Assembly: GCA_002368295.1 (NCBI GenBank)
Contig: AP018248.1
Coordinates: 4,204,151-4,225,353, forward strand
DNA length: 21,203 nt
From: Tolypothrix tenuis PCC 7101
Lineage (GTDB): Bacteria > Cyanobacteriota > Cyanobacteriia > Cyanobacteriales > Nostocaceae
Direction of reading: 5' to 3'
A program made the translations under genes and the position numbers. The notes below the pieces were generated by a model. It did no database searches. It saw only the letters and a list, made by a program, of their open reading frames with translations, and was not told the origin of the DNA. How positions within the stretch are numbered: position 1 is the stretch's first letter; every line of letters starts with the position of its first letter. Shown here in pieces: positions 593-21,203 of this stretch.

Positions 593-710
593 TAGCCTCC
601 ATCTCTCAGCATGAAAAATATTTAGTGATAATTTATTCACTGTAAATGAGAATTCTGTGGCACAGCCTGGGAATACTTTATTCAGAGGTTTTCCCTACCA
701 TTGCTCATAT

Positions 711-2726
711 ATGACTTACTCGTCACCGCAACGGCGCAGTACCGCTCTAACCACAAAAACAGAGTTTTCGCCCTTTGGCAACAAGCTAGTACAGACTGGC
801 TATGTTAATAACGAACAGATGAGACAGGCACTCATTGAAAGCCGCAAATCTGGCACACCTTTAACAGAGGTGCTGGAGTCAATTACCGGGCGGCAACTCT
901 CACCTGAATTAGTTAGACAATACAAAAAACAGCAGTTATTTGAACTAAAAATACTATACGGGGTTGAATTCCTTGATCCGGAAGTCAACCAACTTGCTAA
1001 TACGATGGTGGGGAGGTTAATTGAAACCCTCATTCCCGTAGACATTTGTCGTCGCCATCGCTTAATCCCACTATCAAAACATGACGACCAAACCCCACCT
1101 TGCGTTTTGGTGGCGATGGTCGATCCGGATAACCTGGAAGCTTCAGATGACCTCAACCGCATCTTGCGCCCACAAGGTTTAGCTTTGCAGCGCATGGTAA
1201 TTACCCAGGAAGATTACCAACAGCTGATTAATCAATACCTAGATGAACTCGCAATTAGGCAAAAACATCTAGAACAAGAAAAGTTTACAGATATTAATCA
1301 AGATTTAGAAAACCTGAATAATCTTGATCTCGATGATGCTCCTGAAGATATGGAGGCTGATTTAGGAGCAGCGATGAAGGGTGCAGAAGATGCACCAGTC
1401 ATTAATCTCGTGAATAGAATTCTGGCTAAAGCCTTGCATGAAAAGGTTTCGGATATTCACATTGAACCGCAGGAAGAAAATCTCCGCATTCGTTTTCGTA
1501 AGGATGGGGTGCTGCGTCAAGCGTTTGACCCCCTACCGAAAAAAATCGTGGCGGCGGTGACAGCCAGGTTTAAAATCATTTCTAGCTTAGACATTGCTGA
1601 GAGACGGTTACCCCAAGACGGACGTATCCGGCGGATGTTTGAGGGACGTAAAGTGGATTTCCGCGTCAACACCTTACCCAGTCGCTACGGGGAAAAGATT
1701 TGTTTGCGGATTTTGGATAACTCCTCAACTCAACTCGGATTACATAAGCTGATTACTGACCAGGAAACCTTAGATATTGTTAAGGACATGGTCAGCCGTC
1801 CCTTTGGGTTGATTTTGGTTACAGGCCCTACTGGTTCTGGTAAAACCACCTCGCTGTATTCAGCATTGGCAGAAAAGAACGATCCTGGAGTCAACATCAG
1901 TACAGTAGAAGACCCGATTGAGTATAGTTTGCCAGGGATTACTCAAGTACAGGTAATTCGGGAAAAAGGACTAGATTTTGCTACCGCTTTGCGGGCTTTT
2001 TTGCGGCAAGACCCAGATGTGTTACTCGTAGGTGAAACCAGAGACAAGGAAACTGCCAAAACAGCGATTGAGGCAGCCTTAACAGGTCACTTAGTATTGA
2101 CCACCTTACACACCAATGATGCCCCAGGTGCGATCGCGCGTTTGGGAGAAATGGGTATTGAACCTTTCATGGTTTCTAGTTCTTTGATTGGTGTGTTAGC
2201 ACAACGGTTGGTTCGGCGTGTTTGTCCCGATTGTCGTATTCCCTATACTCCTACAACCGAAGAACTGGCTCGTTATGGTATGTCTGCTTCTCAAGAAGTG
2301 AATGTCACTTTCTACAAAGCTAATTCCTTGCCCAACGAAACCCAAGCGGAAGCGAAAGCCAGCGGTCAACAAGTATGCTCCACTTGTAATGGCGTTGGCT
2401 ATAAAGGGCGTTGTGGTGTTTATGAAGTGATGCGAATCACCGAAAACTTGCAAACTCTCATCAACGAAGAAGCACCAACGGAACGGATTAAGGAAGTAGC
2501 AGTAGAAGAAGGGATGAAAACCTTGCTGGCGTACAGCTTAGATTTAGTACGTCAAGGCTCCACCACCCTAGAAGAAGTTGAGCGAGTCACCTTTACTGAT
2601 ACCGGTTTGGAAGCGGAATTAAAAGCTAAACGCAAGAGTGGTCTAACGTGCCGCACTTGTGATGCCACATTACAACCAGAATGGCTAGATTGTCCCTACT
2701 GTCTGACACCTCGCTTTACTGATTAG
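711..2726 (+). CDS. pilB: Type IV pilus assembly (extension) ATPase PilB, GspE family
   Basis: The ORF spans 657..2726, with GTG at 657. The first ATG at 711 gives MTYSSPQRR and is used here. Motifs: Walker A GPTGSGKTT (1824..1850), LLVGETRD, TGHLVLTTLHTN, and the tetracysteine motif CPDC...CSTC. There are N-terminal GspE-N-like segments. pilT and pilC follow directly. Confidence 0.92.
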   Translation: MTYSSPQRRSTALTTKTEFSPFGNKLVQTGYVNNEQMRQALIESRKSGTPLTEVLESITGRQLSPELVRQYKKQQLFELKILYGVEFLDPEVNQLANTMVGRLIETLIPVDICRRHRLIPLSKHDDQTPPCVLVAMVDPDNLEASDDLNRILRPQGLALQRMVITQEDYQQLINQYLDELAIRQKHLEQEKFTDINQDLENLNNLDLDDAPEDMEADLGAAMKGAEDAPVINLVNRILAKALHEKVSDIHIEPQEENLRIRFRKDGVLRQAFDPLPKKIVAAVTARFKIISSLDIAERRLPQDGRIRRMFEGRKVDFRVNTLPSRYGEKICLRILDNSSTQLGLHKLITDQETLDIVKDMVSRPFGLILVTGPTGSGKTTSLYSALAEKNDPGVNISTVEDPIEYSLPGITQVQVIREKGLDFATALRAFLRQDPDVLLVGETRDKETAKTAIEAALTGHLVLTTLHTNDAPGAIARLGEMGIEPFMVSSSLIGVLAQRLVRRVCPDCRIPYTPTTEELARYGMSASQEVNVTFYKANSLPNETQAEAKASGQQVCSTCNGVGYKGRCGVYEVMRITENLQTLINEEAPTERIKEVAVEEGMKTLLAYSLDLVRQGSTTLEEVERVTFTDTGLEAELKAKRKSGLTCRTCDATLQPEWLDCPYCLTPRFTD

Positions 2727-2771
2727 TCAAACATCAAAAGTCAAATAACAAACAACTAGGGAGACGAAACT

Positions 2772-3896
2772 ATGGAGATGATGATTGAAGATTTGATGGA
2801 GCAGATGATTGAAATGGGGGGTTCGGATCTGCATTTATCCGCCGGGTTACCACCCTATTTCCGAATTAGTGGCAAACTCACCCCCATAGGCGACCATGTA
2901 TTGACTGCGGATCAGTGTCAAAGGCTGATCTTTAGTATGCTCAACAATACTCAGCGTAAAACTTTAGAGCAGACCTGGGAACTGGATTGTTCTTATGGTG
3001 TAAAAGGCTTGGCGCGTTTCCGCGTCAATGTTTATAAGGATCGTGGTTCCTACGCTGCTTGTTTACGCGCCCTCAGCTCCAAAATTCCCAACTTTGAAAA
3101 ATTAGGGTTGCCAGATGTAGTCCGGGAAATGACAGAGAAGCCCAGAGGACTGATTTTGGTAACAGGGCCTACTGGTTCTGGTAAAACCACTACCTTGGCA
3201 GCAATGATTGACTTGATTAATCGCACCAAGGCGGAGCATATTTTGACTGTAGAAGATCCAATAGAATTTGTGTATGAACCAATTAAAAGCTTGGTTCACC
3301 AGCGACAACTTGGTGAAGATACTAAGAGTTTTGCTAATGCTTTGAAGGCAGCTTTGCGGGAAGATCCAGATATTATTCTGGTTGGGGAAATGCGGGATTT
3401 GGAAACGATTTCCTTGGCGATTTCTGCGGCGGAAACAGGTCACTTAGTATTTGGAACTTTGCACACCAGTTCAGCTGCACAGACTGTTGACCGGATTATT
3501 GACGTTTTTCCCCATGAAAGACAAACCCAGGTACGGGTGCAGTTATCTAACTCCTTGGTAGCTGTGTTTAGCCAAACTTTGGTACCAAAGAAAAACCCCA
3601 AACCAGGTGAATATGGTCGGGTCATGGCTCAAGAAATTATGATCATTACTCCTGCTATTTCTAACTTGATTCGCGAGGGGAAAACATCTCAAATTTACTC
3701 TGCAATCCAAACTGGCGGTAAGTTAGGTATGCAAACACTAGAAAAAGTTTTAGCTGATTATTATAAAGCTGGAGTTATCTCCTTTGAAGCTGCTATGTCT
3801 AAAACTTCTAAGCCTGATGAAATTCAACGTCTCATTGGTGGTGCACCACAAGCAGCAGGTGCAAAACCAGCTGCTGGTGTTGCTAAAGCTCATTAA
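2772..3896 (+). CDS. pilT: Twitching-motility (retraction) ATPase PilT
   Basis: 374 aa. Motifs: Walker A GPTGSGKTT (3165..3191), ILVGEMRD, TGHLVFGTLHT and PAISNLIREGK, which are typical of PilT/PilU. An AGGGAGA Shine-Dalgarno sits 7 nt upstream of the ATG. Confidence 0.93.
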   Translation: MEMMIEDLMEQMIEMGGSDLHLSAGLPPYFRISGKLTPIGDHVLTADQCQRLIFSMLNNTQRKTLEQTWELDCSYGVKGLARFRVNVYKDRGSYAACLRALSSKIPNFEKLGLPDVVREMTEKPRGLILVTGPTGSGKTTTLAAMIDLINRTKAEHILTVEDPIEFVYEPIKSLVHQRQLGEDTKSFANALKAALREDPDIILVGEMRDLETISLAISAAETGHLVFGTLHTSSAAQTVDRIIDVFPHERQTQVRVQLSNSLVAVFSQTLVPKKNPKPGEYGRVMAQEIMIITPAISNLIREGKTSQIYSAIQTGGKLGMQTLEKVLADYYKAGVISFEAAMSKTSKPDEIQRLIGGAPQAAGAKPAAGVAKAH

Positions 3897-3949
3897 TGAA
3901 GCATAAAAATCAAGGTGCAAGGGAGAACAAGATAAATAATTAATTACTG

Positions 3950-3977
3950 TTGACCCTTGACCCTTGATATTTGACCC
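3950..3977. repeat. Tandem heptamer array (unit TTGACCC)
   Basis: ttgaccc ttgaccc ttgatat ttgaccc, in the pilT-pilC spacer. Confidence 0.6.
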
Positions 3978-4003
3978 TTAAACTATTTTAAATTGATTAA
4001 TCT

Positions 4004-5224
4004 ATGCCTACCTATGTTGCCCGTGTGCGGGACTCACAAGGAAAATCTAGAACAGAAAAATTTTCGGCTGAATCATTAGCTCAAGCCCGTACTAATCTGA
4101 GAGACCAAGGTTTAGTTGTTCAAGACTTGAAAGAGTCTAAGGGCGGATTCAGCTTTGATTTGCAGAAATTTCAGACATCAATGGTCAAAGTTACTGTGAA
4201 GGATAAAGCGGTTTTCTCTCGCCAATTTGCTGTTTTGACAAATGCAGGTGTAGCGATTGTTAGAAGTTTGGGAGTACTTTCTGAGCAGTGTAGCAATCCT
4301 AAATTAAAAGTCGCTTTGAATGATATTAGCAATGATGTTCAAAGCGGGACAAATCTTTCCGATGCTATGCGGAAGCATCCTGATTGCTTTGATAATTTGT
4401 ATGTCAGTATGGTGCAAGCTGGGGAAATTGGTGGGGTGCTAGACGACGTATTAAACCGATTAGCGAAGCTGTTAGAGGATGTAGCACGCCTACAAAACCA
4501 AATCAAAGCGGCATTATCTTATCCTGTGGTTGTTGGTGTTTTAGCAACATCAATCTTTGTTGGGATGACTGTTTTCCTAATTCCAATTTTTGCCAAAATA
4601 TTTAAAGACATCGGTATAGATTTACCTCCTTTAACACAATTTTTGATGGATTGTAGTGCAATATTACGCAGTTTATGGTCTGTCGTAATTATTGCTGGAT
4701 TTATCGGTTTATCGATTGCCTATAAGCAGTATTATAAAACTGCTGTTGGTAAACTAACTATCGACCGTATTTCTTTAAAGGTGCCTTTATTTGGTGATTT
4801 GATTCAAAAATCATCAGTTGCCCGCTTTAGCCGTACTTTTGGGTCATTGACTCGTTCTGGTGTACCTATCCTTACTTGTTTAGAAATTGTCCGGGATACA
4901 TCAGGAAATCAAATTGTTGCTAATGCTATCGATGCCGCCCGGATAGAAATTCAACAAGGAGGCATGATTAGCGCTGCTTTGCAAAAAGAAGCAGTGTTTC
5001 CCGCTATGGCAATTCAGATGATTAGTATTGGTGAAGAAACCGGGGAATTAGATGGAATGTTAATGAAAGTTGCTGACTTCTATGAAGATGAAGTTGAGCA
5101 AGCAGTTAAAGCATTAACTAGTGTTTTAGAACCACTAATGATTGTGGTTTTAGGGGGTATGGTCGGTACAATTTTGTTAGCAATGTATCTGCCTATGTTC
5201 AAGGTATTTGAAAAGATGGGCTAA
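4004..5224 (+). CDS. pilC: Type IV pilus inner-membrane platform protein PilC (GspF family)
   Basis: 406 aa, starting MPTYVARVRDSQGK. It has a duplicated GspF-type architecture with hydrophobic segments (YPVVVGVLATSIFVGMTVFLIPIF, LEPLMIVVLGGMVGTILLAMYLPMF) and sits after pilB-pilT. Confidence 0.92.
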   Translation: MPTYVARVRDSQGKSRTEKFSAESLAQARTNLRDQGLVVQDLKESKGGFSFDLQKFQTSMVKVTVKDKAVFSRQFAVLTNAGVAIVRSLGVLSEQCSNPKLKVALNDISNDVQSGTNLSDAMRKHPDCFDNLYVSMVQAGEIGGVLDDVLNRLAKLLEDVARLQNQIKAALSYPVVVGVLATSIFVGMTVFLIPIFAKIFKDIGIDLPPLTQFLMDCSAILRSLWSVVIIAGFIGLSIAYKQYYKTAVGKLTIDRISLKVPLFGDLIQKSSVARFSRTFGSLTRSGVPILTCLEIVRDTSGNQIVANAIDAARIEIQQGGMISAALQKEAVFPAMAIQMISIGEETGELDGMLMKVADFYEDEVEQAVKALTSVLEPLMIVVLGGMVGTILLAMYLPMFKVFEKMG

Positions 5225-7827: not shown

Positions 7828-7851
7828 GGGCATTGGGCATTGGGCATTGGG
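7828..7851. repeat. STRR-like tandem heptamer array (unit GGGCATT x3 plus GGG)
   Basis: Read directly: gggcatt gggcatt gggcatt ggg. Confidence 0.7.
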
Positions 7852-7858
7852 AACTCTT

Positions 7859-7893
7859 CCCCATTCCCCATTCCCCATTCCCCATTCCCCATG
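7859..7893. repeat. STRR-like tandem heptamer array (unit CCCCATT x4 plus CCCCATG)
   Basis: Read directly: ccccatt x4, then ccccatg. Confidence 0.75.
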
Positions 7894-7897
7894 CCCT

Positions 7898-13836: not shown

Positions 13837-14115
13837 TTAGAAGCGATCGCGGTGTCGGCGTTGTTCTTCAAAGCGACGTTGACGTTCGCGTTCAATTTCT
13901 AGCCTGCGTTGACGTTCGCGTTCAATTTCTAGTTTGCGTTGGCGATCGCGTTCGAGTTCTAGCCTATGCTGGCGATCGCGTTCTAATTGCTGTTCCCGCC
14001 AGTCATGTCGTTCATTACCTCCAAGAATTACTTGAATTTGAGCCGAAGCTGGTTTTGCTAACACACTTGAAGCTAGCACAACACCTAATACACCGGATGC
14101 AAGAATCCTTTTCAT
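13837..14115 (-). CDS. Secreted Arg/Glu-rich tandem-repeat protein (92 aa), function unknown
   Basis: The track ORF extends to 14166. The ATG at 14115 gives MKRILASGVLGVVLASSVLAKPASA, a signal peptide with an A-x-A site. The mature part contains LELERDRQRK / LEIERERQRR / LEIERERQRR decapeptide repeats. Confidence 0.6.
   Translation of the reverse strand: MKRILASGVLGVVLASSVLAKPASAQIQVILGGNERHDWREQQLERDRQHRLELERDRQRKLEIERERQRRLEIERERQRRFEEQRRHRDRF
13877..13990. repeat. 30-bp tandem repeat, about 3.8 units, inside the CDS
   Basis: Units start at 13877, 13907, 13937 and 13967. The first two are CGTTGACGTTCGCGTTCAATTTCTAG... The last two carry HIP1 (GGCGATCGCG) in place of TGACGTTCGCG. Confidence 0.8.
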
Positions 14116-14361
14116 AAAGAAAATCCTTGAATGAAATGTAAAGTTAATGGAAGAAAAAGAAGCCACTAACGAGTAGCTTCTAAGAAAATAAGGAACATGA
14201 ACACTAATTGCTATTGACTTATCTTTTGCCTTGAGTTGAGCTATGGTTGCGAATAGAATCGAGTAGAGTACACCTTAACTTTTCAGAGGCAAATTGATAG
14301 TTCCATCTCAAGTGGTAGATTCAAGTTATTATTAAAGCTGGTTTTTCTCAAAAATGATTCA

Positions 14362-17434: not shown

Positions 17435-17464
17435 GGGCATGGGGCATAGGGCATGGGGCATGGG
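17435..17464. repeat. STRR-like tandem heptamer array (unit GGGCATG, about 4 units)
   Basis: gggcatg gggcata gggcatg gggcatg gg. Confidence 0.7.
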
Positions 17465-17642: not shown

Positions 17643-18938
17643 GTGCTACCAAATAAGCCCCCAGCGGGGAATCAAACTCAACGTTGGACATTGTCTCAAC
17701 TTTTTGGCTTGGCGAGGCGCAATCCGCTAATGATTTCTAGGTGGGTTCTATGTTGGGCTGCTGTGGGGACTGCGAGTGGTATATTTGCTGGTGTGTATTG
17801 GAATGTTTTAGAACTAATTATTCACAAACTCCAACGCTTTGAGGGTTTGAGTCTGCTGTTAGTAATGCCACTATGTGGTTTATTAGTCGGCTTGGTGATT
17901 CATTTTCTGGGAAATCCCGGCGAAATCGCGGTGATTGTCGATAATATCCACTTTCGCGGCGGAAGGCTGGATAGTCGAAAAAATCCCTCCATGATTCTCG
18001 CTTCTCTAGTTAGTATCTCAGCTGGTGGGAGTGCTGGGCCAGAAGCGCCTCTAGTGCAAGTAACTGGTTCTTTTGGTACGTGGGTAGCCGATCGCTTTAA
18101 ACTTCAAGGAGAAGATTTGAGATCTATGAGTTTAGCAGCAATGGCAGCTGGCTTTACTGCTTTGTTTGGTTCTCCTTTGGGCGGTGCAATGTTCGCTTTA
18201 GAGATTTTGCACCATCAGCATATTGTGGAATATTACGAAGCTTTGATGCCAGCGATTGTTGCGAGTTGCGCTAGCTACTTGGTATTTGCAGCAATTACAC
18301 ATTTAGGAATTGCACCTACCTGGAATTTCCCTCAATACAACTTAGCCAACATAGATGATTTTGCTTTAGCGATCGCCTTTGGTATTCTAGGTGCAGTTGC
18401 GGGATGGATTTTTATGGCGATTTTTCGTTTTTGCGATCGCGCTTTTTCCCGTATTCCTGGCCCTATCTATTTACGTACCACATTAGCAGGTTTAGGATTA
18501 GGCGCTTTAGCCGTTGTTTTACCGCTTACTCGGTATTTTGGCCATGAAGAATTAGAATCTGTCGTTAATACTAATATTCCGGCGATGTTTTTGTTGATAT
18601 TAGCCTTGGGTAAAATGGCTGCTATCAGCATGACTGTTACAGGTGGTTGGCGGGGTGGATTTATTATCCCCTTATTTTTTACTGGCGCTTGTATAGGTAA
18701 AGCCGTAGCACTCTTAATCCCCGGAGTTCATCCAGCTTTAGCAATGATTTGCACAATGGCGGCGATTAATGCAGCTGTGACACGCACACCCATTAGCACA
18801 ACTTTGTTGCTATCAAAACTCACTAACTTTAGTCCCTTCACACCAATACTCTTTGCCAGTTTAATGGGATTTTTCCTCGCTCCAAAAGTTCCCTTGATTG
18901 CATCTCAATTGAAGCATCAAACAGAGGTAGCTAATTAA
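17643..18938 (+). CDS. ClC-family voltage-gated chloride channel / anion:proton antiporter homologue
   Basis: 431 aa and polytopic. GGSAGPEAPLVQVTG aligns with the GREGPxVQIG selectivity-filter segment, including the gating Glu. GSPLGGAMFALE and GGFIIPLFF match the GxFxP segment. The GTG start at 17643 is uncertain; an alternative ATG is at 17730. Confidence 0.88.
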   Translation: MLPNKPPAGNQTQRWTLSQLFGLARRNPLMISRWVLCWAAVGTASGIFAGVYWNVLELIIHKLQRFEGLSLLLVMPLCGLLVGLVIHFLGNPGEIAVIVDNIHFRGGRLDSRKNPSMILASLVSISAGGSAGPEAPLVQVTGSFGTWVADRFKLQGEDLRSMSLAAMAAGFTALFGSPLGGAMFALEILHHQHIVEYYEALMPAIVASCASYLVFAAITHLGIAPTWNFPQYNLANIDDFALAIAFGILGAVAGWIFMAIFRFCDRAFSRIPGPIYLRTTLAGLGLGALAVVLPLTRYFGHEELESVVNTNIPAMFLLILALGKMAAISMTVTGGWRGGFIIPLFFTGACIGKAVALLIPGVHPALAMICTMAAINAAVTRTPISTTLLLSKLTNFSPFTPILFASLMGFFLAPKVPLIASQLKHQTEVAN

Positions 18939-18955
18939 TTTTGGCATGGGAGTGG

Positions 18956-18986
18956 AGGGCAGGGGGCAGGGGGCAGGGGGCAGGGA
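18956..18986. repeat. STRR-like tandem heptamer array (unit GGGGCAG, about 4 units)
   Basis: agggcag ggggcag ggggcag ggggcag gga, directly after the ClC stop. Confidence 0.7.
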
Positions 18987-19083
18987 GCGAGTAAATATTA
19001 ATTGATTTGGATTACTTCTTCCCAAAACAGTTGAGCTAAATTACAATCTCCATCAGCATAATCTCGTATTTCTTGCGGAAAAT

Positions 19084-19521
19084 ATGGAGCCTGTGACACT
19101 CACTGCTGCGGGAATCGCCACCCTAGTGTTTACCAAAGCTTTTGAAACCACTATAGAGAAAGCAACAGAAAGTGTTCTGAAAAAATTGGAACAGCTTCGC
19201 CAGAAGATTTTGCAGAAATTCAAGGGTACGCCCAGAGTAGAAGCAGCTTTGGTAAAAGTGCAGCAAGGCTCTAAGGAAGATTTAAATGTGGTGGCTGCTT
19301 ATTTGCAAGAGGCGATGGACAAAGACCCCAAATTTGCGGAAGAAGTGAAAACCCTGGCCACAGAAATTCACCAAGAAATTAATATTGGTAAGGTGGAAGG
19401 CAAGAATGTGCAGAATGTTTACGGTGGCGAGGCTTTTCAGTCTAATGATGCTAAGGCTCCCACGATTCAAGGGGGTAGTAATCACACTATTAATATTACC
19501 TATAATAATTCCCCCAATTGA
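19084..19521 (+). CDS. 145-aa helical N-module with an N/G/Q-rich tail, in frame with the downstream NB-ARC/TPR body (NLR N-terminal effector/adaptor-like)
   Basis: ATG ORF. Residues 1-20 (MEPVTLTAAGIATLVFTKAF) are hydrophobic. Residues 21-100 are amphipathic and helical. The last 46 residues, NIGKVEGKNVQNVYGGEAFQSNDAKAPTIQGGSNHTINITYNNSPN, include 18 N/G/Q by hand count. The ORF ends at TGA 19519..19521, in the same frame as the next feature. Confidence 0.6.
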   Translation: MEPVTLTAAGIATLVFTKAFETTIEKATESVLKKLEQLRQKILQKFKGTPRVEAALVKVQQGSKEDLNVVAAYLQEAMDKDPKFAEEVKTLATEIHQEINIGKVEGKNVQNVYGGEAFQSNDAKAPTIQGGSNHTINITYNNSPN

Positions 19522-21203
19522 CTAAAGTCGCCTGAACGGGAACAGGTAAAGCCTCATCCCCAGAGTGAAATACCGCAAAATTTCCCCCTGAGTGGGGTAG
19601 TGGAATTTGTTGGGCGTGGGGAAGAATTGCAAACACTCCAGCAAATGTTGCAGCAAAATCAACAAGTAGCGATTGCGGCTATTGCGGGGATGGGTGGAGT
19701 TGGGAAAACAGAACTGGCGTTGCAATATGCCATTGAGTACCGCGACAATTATCAAGGTGGAATTTGCTGGTTGTTGCCCAAATCTGGGGATATTGGGGTG
19801 CAAATTGTCCAGTTTGCGAGGACGCAGCTAGATTTAAACCCGCCAATAGATGTAGATTTACCCGCGCAAGTGCAATTTTGCTGGCGGCGTTGGCGTGAGG
19901 GTGATGTGCTGCTGGTGTTGGATGATGTTGCTGATTATCAGGAAGTTAAACCTTACTTTGTGTCGCTATCTTCTCGGTTCAAAATCCTGATTACTACTCG
20001 CCAGCATTGGGGACGAATAGCAGAATTACCCTTAGATGTGCTGCAACCAGAGGCGGCGCTGGAATTATTAAAGTCAATTATTGGGGTAGAAAGGTTTGAG
20101 CGGGAAAATCAACGCCACCCCCAAGTAGCATTACAGTTATGTGAGTGGCTGGGATATTTGCCCTTGGGTTTAGAGTTGGTGGGGCGGTATCTGGCGCAGA
20201 AACCAGATTTATCATTTGCAGAAATGCAGCGACGGTTGGAGAAAAAGCGACTAGAACAACCTGCGCTTAATAAACCAGAAGCCGACATGACAGCAAAACG
20301 GGGTGTGTTAGCAGCCTTTGAGTTGAGTTGGCAGGAATTAGAAGAAAATGATCAACAACTGGGCTGCTTATTGAGTTTATTTGCAGCCGCACCAATACCT
20401 TGGGTGTTGGTGGAATATTGTTTACTAGAGGAAGACGAGGAAGATTTAGAAGAAATTAGAGATGATAAGTTGTTGAATTTGCATTTACTCCAGCGCAAAG
20501 GTGAGGGAATCTATCAACTACACCCACTATTGCGGGAGTTTTTTCAATATAAGCTGACAGGTTTAGATAAAGCAGAGGAATTTAAGCATTCTGTTTGCGG
20601 GGTAATGGTAGCAGTTGCTGAAAATCTTCCTCAAACCCCTACCCTTGAGCAAATTAATGATTTCACCCCCGCTATACCTCATATAGCTGAAGTCGCAAAC
20701 AATCTCATTCAATATGTCAGTGATGATGATTTAATTTCGCCTTTCTTCGGTAATGCTAAATTTTACAGTGGTCAGGGATTGTATAACCAGGCTGTAACTT
20801 GGTGTGAGCAGTGTCTAGAAGTTACCAAAAACCTCCTAGGGGAATCACATCCAGATATTGCTACTAGCCTCAACAATCTGGCGGAACTCTATCGTTCCCA
20901 AGGTAGATACAGCGAAGCCGAACCTTTGTATGTGAAAGCTTTAGAACTAACGCAACGAAGCTTGGGGGAATTACATCCATCTTTTGCTACTAGCCTCAAC
21001 AATCTGGCGCTACTCTATCTTTCCCAAGGCAGATACAGCGAAGCCGAACCTTTGTATGTGCAAGCTTTAGAACTAATGCGACGCAGCTTAGGGGAATCAC
21101 ATCCATTTGTTGCTACTAGCCTCAACAATCTGGCGGAACTCTATCGTTTCCAAGGTAGATACAGCGAAGCCGAACCTTTGTACGTGCAAGCTTTAGAACT
21201 AAT
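19522..21203 (+). CDS. NB-ARC (STAND) NTPase with C-terminal TPR repeats, 3'-partial; body of an NLR-like protein
   Basis: Hand translation in frame 1 is open from 19522 to the window end (about 560 codons). Motifs: FVGRGEEL (from 19606), P-loop GMGGVGKT (19690..19713), Walker B LLVLDDV, ILITTR, GYLPLGLEL (the GxPLA equivalent), then 42-aa TPR units HPxxATSLNNLAxLYxxQGRYSEAEPLYVxALEL. There is no ATG/GTG/TTG before GTG 19600, and the first ATG is at 19645. It is missing from the ORF track because it has no stop in the window. Confidence 0.85.
20836..21203. repeat. 126-bp tandem DNA repeats (2.9 units visible) encoding the TPR units
   Basis: Units start at 20836, 20962 and 21088. Hand comparison: unit 1 vs 2 differ at 15 of 126 nt, and unit 1 vs 3 at 8 of 116 nt. 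Confidence 0.85.

Follow-up and report, generated by a model that had tools for sequence, protein, structure and literature searches.

A conserved in-frame UGA and RNA hairpin between a Bell-type effector module and its NLR frame in filamentous cyanobacteria, a candidate site of programmed readthrough

The DNA analyzed here, a stretch of 21,203 nucleotides from contig AP018248.1 of Tolypothrix tenuis PCC 7101 (the window), contains near its 3′ end, on the forward strand, a small open reading frame (ORF, 19084..19521) that starts with ATG, stops with TGA and encodes a 145-aa protein (coding sequence 19084..19518). After this TGA, the same frame continues into an NB-ARC/TPR frame of the NLR type (19522..21203, cut by the window end), as an earlier note on this DNA, made from the sequence alone, had correctly implied when it mentioned a readthrough fusion. 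Pfam domains were identified in the downstream frame as NB-ARC (~19624-20256, 1.3e-14) and TPR (from ~20740; TPR_10 4.5e-46, TPR_12 4.5e-41), and the closest complete homologue (L001) extends for 800 codons past the TGA. The stop codon (19519..19521, context UGA-C UA), the frame that follows it and an RNA hairpin lying 8 nt downstream (19530..19547) were conserved in genome and metagenome loci, and this UGA is described below as a candidate readthrough codon.

The earlier note had recognized in the small protein a hydrophobic first helix, a helical body and a 46-residue tail with 18 N/G/Q residues, and each of these was borne out. The N-terminal helix (MEPVTLTAAGIATLVFTKAF, residues 1-20, 19084..19143), with Glu at position 2, is moderately hydrophobic, its mean Kyte-Doolittle hydropathy being 1.15 over residues 1-20 and 1.82 over residues 4-17, and M1, E2, T7, A8, I11, A12, T13, L14, K18, and E21 are kept in at least 90% of the homologues. 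An AlphaFold2 model (mb2168647527e), calculated from a 72-sequence alignment, predicted six helices (residues 8-16, 19-26, 29-45, 50-60, 64-80, and 82-106) forming a bundle-like domain of residues 1-106 (19084..19401), that is, a helical body of about 100 residues. The confidence of this model was moderate, with a block-mean predicted local distance difference test (pLDDT) score of 63-91 across residues 1-100, and the tail from about residue 104 to 145 was disordered in the monomer (pLDDT ~41). This tail (NIGKVEGKNVQNVYGGEAFQSNDAKAPTIQGGSNHTINITYNNSPN, residues 100-145, 19381..19518) is a candidate amyloid-forming motif; its 18 N/G/Q residues in 46 aa represent 39%, vs. 11% in residues 1-99, and it contains no Leu, two Pro, and three Lys. 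It was also conserved among homologues, a point that the earlier note had left to be examined, with Q110, N111, G114, Q119, Q129, and G130 each kept in ≥90% of 72 sequences. When 5.8 billion proteins were searched, 73 stand-alone homologues were returned, all of 135-167 aa and almost all from Nostocales, and an exhaustive hidden Markov model search returned 642 clusters at 50% identity, mostly of 130-155 aa. Since there are 73 homologues and the tail is conserved, the ORF is not a chance frame.

In a search with a closer subset of the homologues, 80 genome loci encoding relatives of the module were retrieved and split into two groups. In the closer group of 58 loci, whose modules are 47-97% identical to that of the window, the stop was TGA followed by C in the window and in 58/58 in-frame loci, and NLR homology (tblastn) started at the first codon past the TGA, in frame 0, in the window and in all 58. 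Metagenomes were then scanned with the stop position left free, and 50 loci were returned. About 38 of these were true cassettes, with the linker and STAND homology, and all of them carried TGA; the 12 matches with other codons were discarded as chance, having neither the linker nor an NLR. The total of TGA-C cassettes was therefore ~97/97, vs. a background of 86/273 for TGA and 5/273 for TGA-C among the long-frame stops of the same loci. The peptide immediately after the stop, L-Q-S-P-E-R-E-R-x-K-L-N-P-P, was kept even where the downstream domain was not NB-ARC, and the junction of the putative long product would read APTIQGGSNHTINITYNNSPN-X-LK, X being the residue at the UGA.

The codons that link the UGA with the start of NB-ARC (LKSPEREQVKPHPQSEIPQNFPLSGVVE, 19522..19605) keep their frame in all of the loci in spite of insertions and deletions, the distance from the TGA to FVGR changing by whole codons only (FVGR at codon 23, 24, 25, 28, 31, or 40). 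No ATG, GTG, or TTG was present between the TGA and FVGR, the first NB-ARC motif, in 24 of the 51 NB-ARC loci, and none was present ahead of the P-loop in four loci (L031, L041, L043, and L047). The GTG at 19600..19602, which is the NLR start in automatic gene calls, is not conserved as a start; it is a Val codon that takes the form GTG in some of the loci.

No homologue fused through a sense codon was found among the 73 homologues of the module. One Bell-NB-ARC database record, P0086, reads '...LPKD-W-LNSSERDR...' across the junction and seemed at first to demonstrate Trp insertion, but its DNA (L134 488-1648) carries the TGA and the cassette, and the W is there because the gene caller used another genetic code. 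As a separate observation, this case illustrates that database records of fused "proteins" in this family can arise as artefacts of translation. A prfB-type +1 frameshift (CUU UGA C) was also rejected, since translation would resume in frame 0 instead of +1 and the codon preceding the UGA shows no conservation. Conversion of the UGA to UGG through A-to-I editing by TadA was likewise set aside, the site lacking the UACG loop context that we presume this enzyme requires.

The DNA just downstream of the TGA evolves in an unusual way. In a codon alignment of 39 non-redundant loci, the third-position entropy of codons +1 to +18 was 0.58 bits, vs. 1.18 in the upstream module and 1.53 from codon +19 on (Mann-Whitney p = 3e-7). 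Over ~55 nt past the TGA, third positions were almost frozen, but positions one and two of the codons varied, and so did the encoded residues (TCG/CCG, GGG/CGG/TGG/AGG, CGG/CAG/CCG/AGG, GCA/GTA/ACA), and from codon +19 on the pattern was that of ordinary coding DNA. The third positions are frozen because of the hairpin. An 8-nt spacer (CUAAAGUC, 19522..19529; alignments A3 and A5) separates the stop from the RNA structure, and in it the C at +4 is invariant and the sequence CUN-NAG nearly so. Stem 1 follows, formed by GCCUG (19530-34) and CAGGU (19543-47) and closing the loop AACGGGAA (19535-42). This 5-bp stem was predicted independently by RNAalifold and, in 82 distinct cassettes, 98.3% of the cells were paired and 47 were double-changed, with pair types such as CG47/UA30/UG3 at one position and CG50/UG18/GC7/UA7 at another. 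The covariation score observed was reached by 0/500 shuffles, and controls slid along the alignment were 21-60% paired. The compensatory changes alter the encoded residues (S/P, G/R/W, R/Q/P), and the structure was assigned to the + strand RNA because G-U pairs are frequent.

A second stem is possible (19538..19560), in which GGGA of the loop (19538-41) would pair with a conserved UCCC (19557-60) lying 9 nt further on, beyond an A-rich linker (AAAGCCUCA), to give a tentative H-type pseudoknot after the UGA. In this stem, 89-94% of the cells were paired and the sequence was nearly invariant, compensation being seen in three single sequences only (L054 CGGA/UCCG, L028 GGAG/CUCC, and L055 AGCU/AGCU). 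The minimum free energy fold of the window sequence on its own also pairs GGGA with UCCC. Folded as a single sequence, the window gives a different, nested structure (-15.3 kcal/mol, z = -2.4), which was rejected, its outer helix not being conserved in the alignment.

A covariance model of the element gave 60 hits (E 6e-16 to 5e-3), with exactly one cassette for every in-frame locus, none in the sister loci with two separate genes described below, and none elsewhere in 617 kb. Rfam contained no family for the element, its sole match being rivX (E = 7.5) on the opposite strand. A transcription terminator was discarded, no intrinsic-terminator-like site being present in 18800-19800. An antisense gene was also discarded as the cause of the codon-position pattern; the covariation of stem 1 explains this pattern, the G-U pairs fit the + strand only, and loci with CTG do not have the minus-strand stop, which is the complement of CTA. 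A 93-codon minus-strand frame in register lies antisense to the linker and the NB-ARC start (window 19522-19803) and was judged to be a shadow ORF. Altogether, the TGA with its hairpin is very probably a functional conserved element of some kind.

The identity of the module was approached through its relatives. Pfam and NCBIfam gave nothing significant for it, Pfam lacking a matching Bell model, and the hits to Thioredoxin_6, IZUMO, SAMP1, and PatD in these scans were rejected as sub-threshold noise. A sequence profile search of the PDB gave no match. The second group of genome loci (L058-L062 and L064-L080) encodes proteins 41-57% identical to the module over residues 1-144 (tblastn) and has a different organization: the small gene stops with TGA, TAA, or TAG, and at a distance of 5-120 nt (or more) it is followed by an NB-ARC gene that begins independently at an ATG and is often out of frame with the small gene. 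In these sister loci, the C-terminal tail of the small protein (MTQINQDNAKGWQTKVEGGTVYQGDINIH; MTQINQDNAKGWQTKVEGG...) recurs at the N-terminus of the adjacent NLR as MNQSNQDNAKGWQNKVEGGIVYQGDISIY, the shared motif being MTQINQDNAKGWQTKVEGGT.Y.G. This motif corresponds to BASS9 in Table S2 of Dyrka et al. (2020; 10.1101/2020.01.06.895854), for example in the Calothrix PCC 6303 pair AFZ02241.1/AFZ02242.1, and the tail of one sister locus (L061) differs from that of AFZ02241.1 by one residue. BASS motifs form prions and fibrils, and Bell and NLR genes commonly overlap or sit within 10 bp of each other (10.1101/2020.01.06.895854).

The organization of the sister loci is the defining layout of Bell/BASS pairs, and the module was therefore filed as Bell-type with a diverged BASS9-related tail, an assignment supported indirectly, by homology to the sister proteins. 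The features by which Bell domains are recognized agree with it: the ~100-aa helical domain (six helices here vs. five), a hydrophobic N-terminal helix with a negative residue at position 2 or 3 (E2, at least 90% conserved), and a short protein of 120-140 aa beside an NLR gene in multicellular bacteria (145 aa, in Nostocales loci). The tail can be aligned to the BASS9 tails of the sister proteins and has the composition of a BASS motif, which is ~25 aa long, C-terminal, rich in Q/N/G/V/I and poor in K/P/L. The paired motif on the adjacent NLR is present in the sister subfamily; at the window locus, the frame after the TGA (LKSPEREQVKPHPQSEIPQNFPLSGVVEFVGR) lacks any N/Q/G motif, and the NLR could carry one only via readthrough. 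The proposal of the earlier note, an executioner or adaptor analogous to Bell/HeLo with a BASS-like tail in an NLR conflict system, thus gained support from the BASS9 homology of the sister loci and from these Bell features. By analogy with HET-S/NWD2 and Bab/Agp, discussed below, the module may be targeted to the membrane, may be toxic, and may form amyloid.

Genuine all-in-one Bell-BASS9-NB-ARC-TPR fusions exist in the family (P0191 and P0205), so the long architecture is viable. Other arrangements were also noted in the family. In P0079, P0107, and P0193, which are further all-in-one architectures, Bell domains with a window-like or BASS9 tail are fused directly to TIR-like sequences (...FFSYSHKDE...); in P0107 and P0193, the fusion is to a CHAT-like segment. 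Among the sister loci, L064 (4001-5060) has remnants or a second copy of the Bell-BASS9 gene between the first copy and the NLR, and the NLRs of L059, L067, and L072 have a ~50-aa helical extension preceding the BASS9 copy (MIQINQDNAKSFQTLVEGG).

The same cassette was found behind at least five effector-plus-tail modules. In addition to the window family, these include related Bell-like domains whose tails differ greatly from it, ending in ...KNVFQGNTIIGGTF, ...AQTQTIDQRNSTFNI, and ...NVNQNSTIENQTFNQTF*, and a third N-terminal type beginning MTDPVTTLTAFAIAEFAFKKF... Furthermore, in three metagenome loci (L087, L098, and L127), a module of more than 289 aa with a tail ...NIGVVNQNSSIQNQNIHQTF* precedes the TGA-hairpin cassette and an NB-ARC gene. 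This module gave weak matches to alpha/beta-hydrolases (DUF676, PGAP1-like, E ~1e-4), so the cassette also serves effectors other than Bell. The partners encoded downstream included NB-ARC/TPR proteins, NACHT proteins with HEAT-like repeats and STAND NTPases of the AAA_16/TANC1-lid type. In every class of cassette, a beta-prone stretch rich in N/Q/T/I lies right at the UGA, even with a different effector domain, and several genomes hold more than one copy of the cassette. The cassette is a general junction between an effector with a beta-prone tail and a STAND sensor in filamentous cyanobacteria. In three further loci (L039 4376-5104, L055 4415-4834, and L056 4418-4879), the frames behind the cassette were short or of a non-STAND kind: L039 encodes a hydrophobic segment that precedes a long S/T/P-rich sequence, and L055 and L056 have 140-154-aa frames without a P-loop. 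These may be decayed or rearranged copies, or may encode other partners.

Compared with the Bell/BASS9-NLR pairs of Dyrka et al. (2020), the window locus has the same kind of small protein (~140 aa, helical, its N-terminal helix hydrophobic, residue 2 acidic and its C-terminal tail rich in N/Q/G) in the same position, directly preceding an NB-ARC/TPR gene of Nostocales and collinear with it. Unlike in those pairs, the NLR lacks both a separate motif copy and a separate start codon, the in-frame UGA-C and the RNA hairpin take the place of the second motif and of the intergenic or overlapping junction, and the tail has diverged from BASS9. The logic proposed is that of HET-S/NWD2 of Podospora anserina and of Bab/Agp, in which the amyloid motif of a sensor templates an identical motif on a small helical executioner that is pore-forming or membrane-active, with regulated cell death or abortive infection as the outcome; the experimentally characterized Bab/Agp system of E. 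coli brings about abortive infection through amyloid signalling (10.1101/2024.11.07.622273). In both of these systems, the motif is encoded twice, in two separate genes, whereas here template and substrate would come from the same codons. The predicted long product has the architecture of the all-in-one Bell-NLR proteins, with Bell fused N-terminally to NB-ARC or NACHT; every molecule is fused in the latter, whereas the fusion proposed here would be the minor product and the free effector the major one.

The junction itself resembles the readthrough signals of viruses. In the alphavirus nsP3/nsP4 junction, a type II context, UGA-CUA is followed by a downstream stem-loop, and in the gag-pol of Moloney murine leukaemia virus (MoMLV), a UAG is followed by an 8-nt spacer and an H-type pseudoknot from +12 (PMC13517186). 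The window site shares with the alphavirus signal the UGA, the C at +4, and the CUA codon that follows the stop, and with the MoMLV signal the 8-nt spacer and the structure beginning at +12. As in viral readthrough, an N-terminal product and a C-terminally extended product would be made from one ORF in a set ratio. In phage Q-beta, the coat/A1 pair is produced by UGA readthrough. The differences are that the cyanobacterial junction belongs to a chromosomal bacterial gene family and to bacterial ribosomes with release factor 2 (RF2), that its stem is much shorter (5 bp), and that its role would lie in immune signalling and not in a replicase or a capsid.

From these comparisons, we propose that programmed readthrough of the UGA yields a free Bell executioner together with a rare executioner-NLR fusion that seeds it, and we assign to this statement as a whole a probability of about 0.65. 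The region 19084-21203 would be one unit of transcription and translation, giving two proteins from a single frame and serving a regulated cell death of the Bell/BASS-NLR kind. Translation would be initiated at the ATG (19084), and most ribosomes would end at the UGA (19519), releasing the 145-aa executioner with its BASS9-related tail. A minority would decode the UGA as a sense codon, probably as Trp by a near-cognate tRNA-Trp, helped by the weak UGA-C context and by the hairpin or pseudoknot that begins 8 nt past the stop, a distance that would place the RNA structure at the mRNA entry channel while the UGA occupies the A site. UGA is the leakiest stop in bacteria. The ribosomes that read through would produce a rare long protein consisting of Bell, tail, linker, NB-ARC, and TPR, an NLR bearing an amyloid motif, which would replace the second motif copy of two-gene systems. 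Once the TPR sensor was triggered, oligomerization of NB-ARC would gather the tails of the long form into a cross-beta nucleus; this nucleus would act as a template for the abundant short form, whose tails are identical, the membrane-directed N-terminal helix of the short form would become active, and the cell would be killed (abortive infection or programmed cell death). Three kinds of evidence by which readthrough is recognized were found at the junction, namely a stop identity and context conserved across divergent homologues (TGA-C ~97/97), an in-frame downstream ORF under coding constraint and without an initiation codon of its own, and a 3′ RNA element with covariation and suppressed synonymous change (stem 1).

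Several points weigh against this proposal. The long product and its readthrough are putative, and the mechanism is drawn by analogy from eukaryotic viruses and phage Q-beta; to our knowledge, no cellular bacterial gene with structure-stimulated readthrough is known. Stem 1 is only 5 bp long and stem 2 is backed mainly by conservation, toward which the pattern used for the metagenome search was itself biased. In the window, the GTG at 19600 could start a motif-less NLR. On the protein side, the best 19-aa window of the N-terminal helix scores 1.17, under the classical transmembrane score; the tail motif NVQNVYGG...IQGG was not found in the published BASS tables; and an executioner function would follow solely from membership in the family. 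The structural comparison suggested in the earlier note, here of the AlphaFold2 model with the PDB by Foldseek, returned no similarity to a solved pore-forming helical bundle: the best match had E = 2.5 and TM-scores were ≤0.3, all with generic helical proteins, the coiled-coil (CC) domain of NRC4 appearing at E = 7.1. Neither this comparison nor the PDB sequence profile matched the module to HeLo, MLKL, or Bab, a weak negative given the moderate confidence of the model.

Among the other explanations, the one that survives best, although we consider it unlikely, is an ordinary operon of two genes. The Bell gene would end at the TGA, and the NLR would be translated from an internal GTG or TTG or from a non-canonical start, for example by termination-reinitiation; the hairpin would serve mRNA processing, stability, or coupling, and the motif-less NLR would signal to the effector in some other way. 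Gene callers do place the NLR start at the GTG 79 nt past the stop (as in L131-L133), the sister subfamily is truly organized as two genes, and overlaps or distances of ≤10 bp are common between Bell and NLR genes (Dyrka et al.). Nevertheless, separate initiation is difficult to reconcile with the 24/51 loci that lack a start before the first NB-ARC motif and the four that lack one before the P-loop, and it would not require frame 0, which is kept in ~97/97 loci in spite of indels. In addition, the stop is always TGA-C, the leakiest kind, while the sister operons use TGA, TAA, and TAG; the codons from +19 to FVGR evolve as coding DNA although they lie upstream of any start; and these NLRs would uniquely be without the partner motif that defines the system.

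A somewhat less probable explanation accepts the short and long products as real and attributes the signalling to something other than amyloid. The module would act as an adaptor of the effector-associated domain (EAD) type that pairs homotypically, or the short form would be a decoy or inhibitor setting the threshold of activation. This is consistent with the identical folded domain that both forms would carry, with the dissimilarity between the tails of the window subfamily and the published BASS profiles, and with a fold search that was uninformative. The conservation of the tail and its richness in N/Q/G, together with the beta-prone N/Q/T/I-rich end at the UGA in all classes of cassette, argue against this explanation.

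An extension of the readthrough proposal, which we regard as equally improbable at present, is that the UGA is a regulated gate and not a leak of fixed ratio, readthrough rising when termination or decoding is perturbed by infection or stress. Opal-suppressor tRNAs of phages, inhibition or depletion of RF2, changes in tRNA-Trp, and temperatures or ions that stabilize the pseudoknot might all act as triggers. If so, the stop codon itself would belong to the immune sensor and guard the fidelity of translation, and the family would also provide the first cellular bacterial example of structure-stimulated readthrough.

Decoding of the UGA as selenocysteine, with the hairpin as a selenocysteine insertion sequence (SECIS) bound by SelB, is very improbable. 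An in-frame UGA with a hairpin just downstream inside the ORF is indeed what bacterial selenoprotein genes have (PMC8659212), but here the hairpin begins 8 nt and not 11 nt past the UGA, the 5-bp stem with its AANGGGAA loop has neither the bulged U nor the loop G-U that SelB requires, and the site lies in an inter-domain linker and not in a redox centre. No Cys-containing homologue was found among the homologues and cassettes, Rfam gave no match, and the Sec trait is reported as absent in Cyanobacteria. Finally, decaying pseudogenes of once-fused Bell-NLR genes, or sequencing or assembly artefacts, would in any single genome look like this after one nonsense mutation, and all-in-one fusions do occur in the wider family (P0191 and P0205), but this explanation is effectively refuted by the comparative data: the same codon stands at the same position in ~97 loci from many genera and assemblies, behind N-terminal modules of down to 47% identity or of other classes, with both flanks open and under coding constraint, covariation in the RNA just downstream and several paralogous copies per genome.

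The module is a new member of a known family, and its expression architecture is undescribed as far as a full-text literature search and the founding paper go, since no earlier description of stop codons or readthrough in Bell, BASS, or NLR genes or in cyanobacteria was found in that search or in Dyrka et al. If programmed readthrough takes place, structure-stimulated readthrough, otherwise essentially viral, would be used family-wide in cellular bacterial genes, and the motifs on the sensor and effector sides would be perfectly matched and their ratio fixed, both being read from the same codons, a novel solution to a design problem of amyloid-based immunity and a novel means of linking a sensor with the executioner that amyloid activates. 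Hundreds of cyanobacterial NLR genes would then have been called with arbitrary internal starts, their effectors being left as orphan 'hypothetical proteins'; published BASS screens miss this class because they require a motif on the NLR side. The UGA with ~45 nt would also constitute a compact, transferable cassette for the response of bacterial ribosomes to structure at termination. Should readthrough fail to be confirmed, the conserved junction of TGA and hairpin, common to five or more effector classes and to several STAND classes, would still be a regulatory element in need of explanation.

The remainder of the window is ordinary, with pilB/pilT/pilC, an aminotransferase, a PAS histidine kinase, and a CLC channel, and with no obvious defence island. 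The type IV pilus-like genes (657-5224), which encode a T2SSE with MshEN (PilB-like), a second T2SSE (PilT-like), and a T2SSF (PilC-like), are unrelated to the Bell gene. Within or beside a small minus-strand ORF (13837..14166), a 30-nt unit (CGTTGACGATCGCGTTCAATTTCTAGCCTG) is repeated 3.7 times with an 82% match (13877-13988). Additionally, tandem arrays of 7-nt units such as CCCATTA, TTGACCC, GGGCATT/TTCCCCA, and GGGCATG occupy intergenic positions (563-592, 3950-3979, 7828-7896, 17435-17464, and 18957-18985), with GGGCAGG repeated four times just upstream of the Bell gene; we take these arrays to resemble the heptameric short tandemly repeated repetitive (STRR) sequences of heterocystous cyanobacteria.

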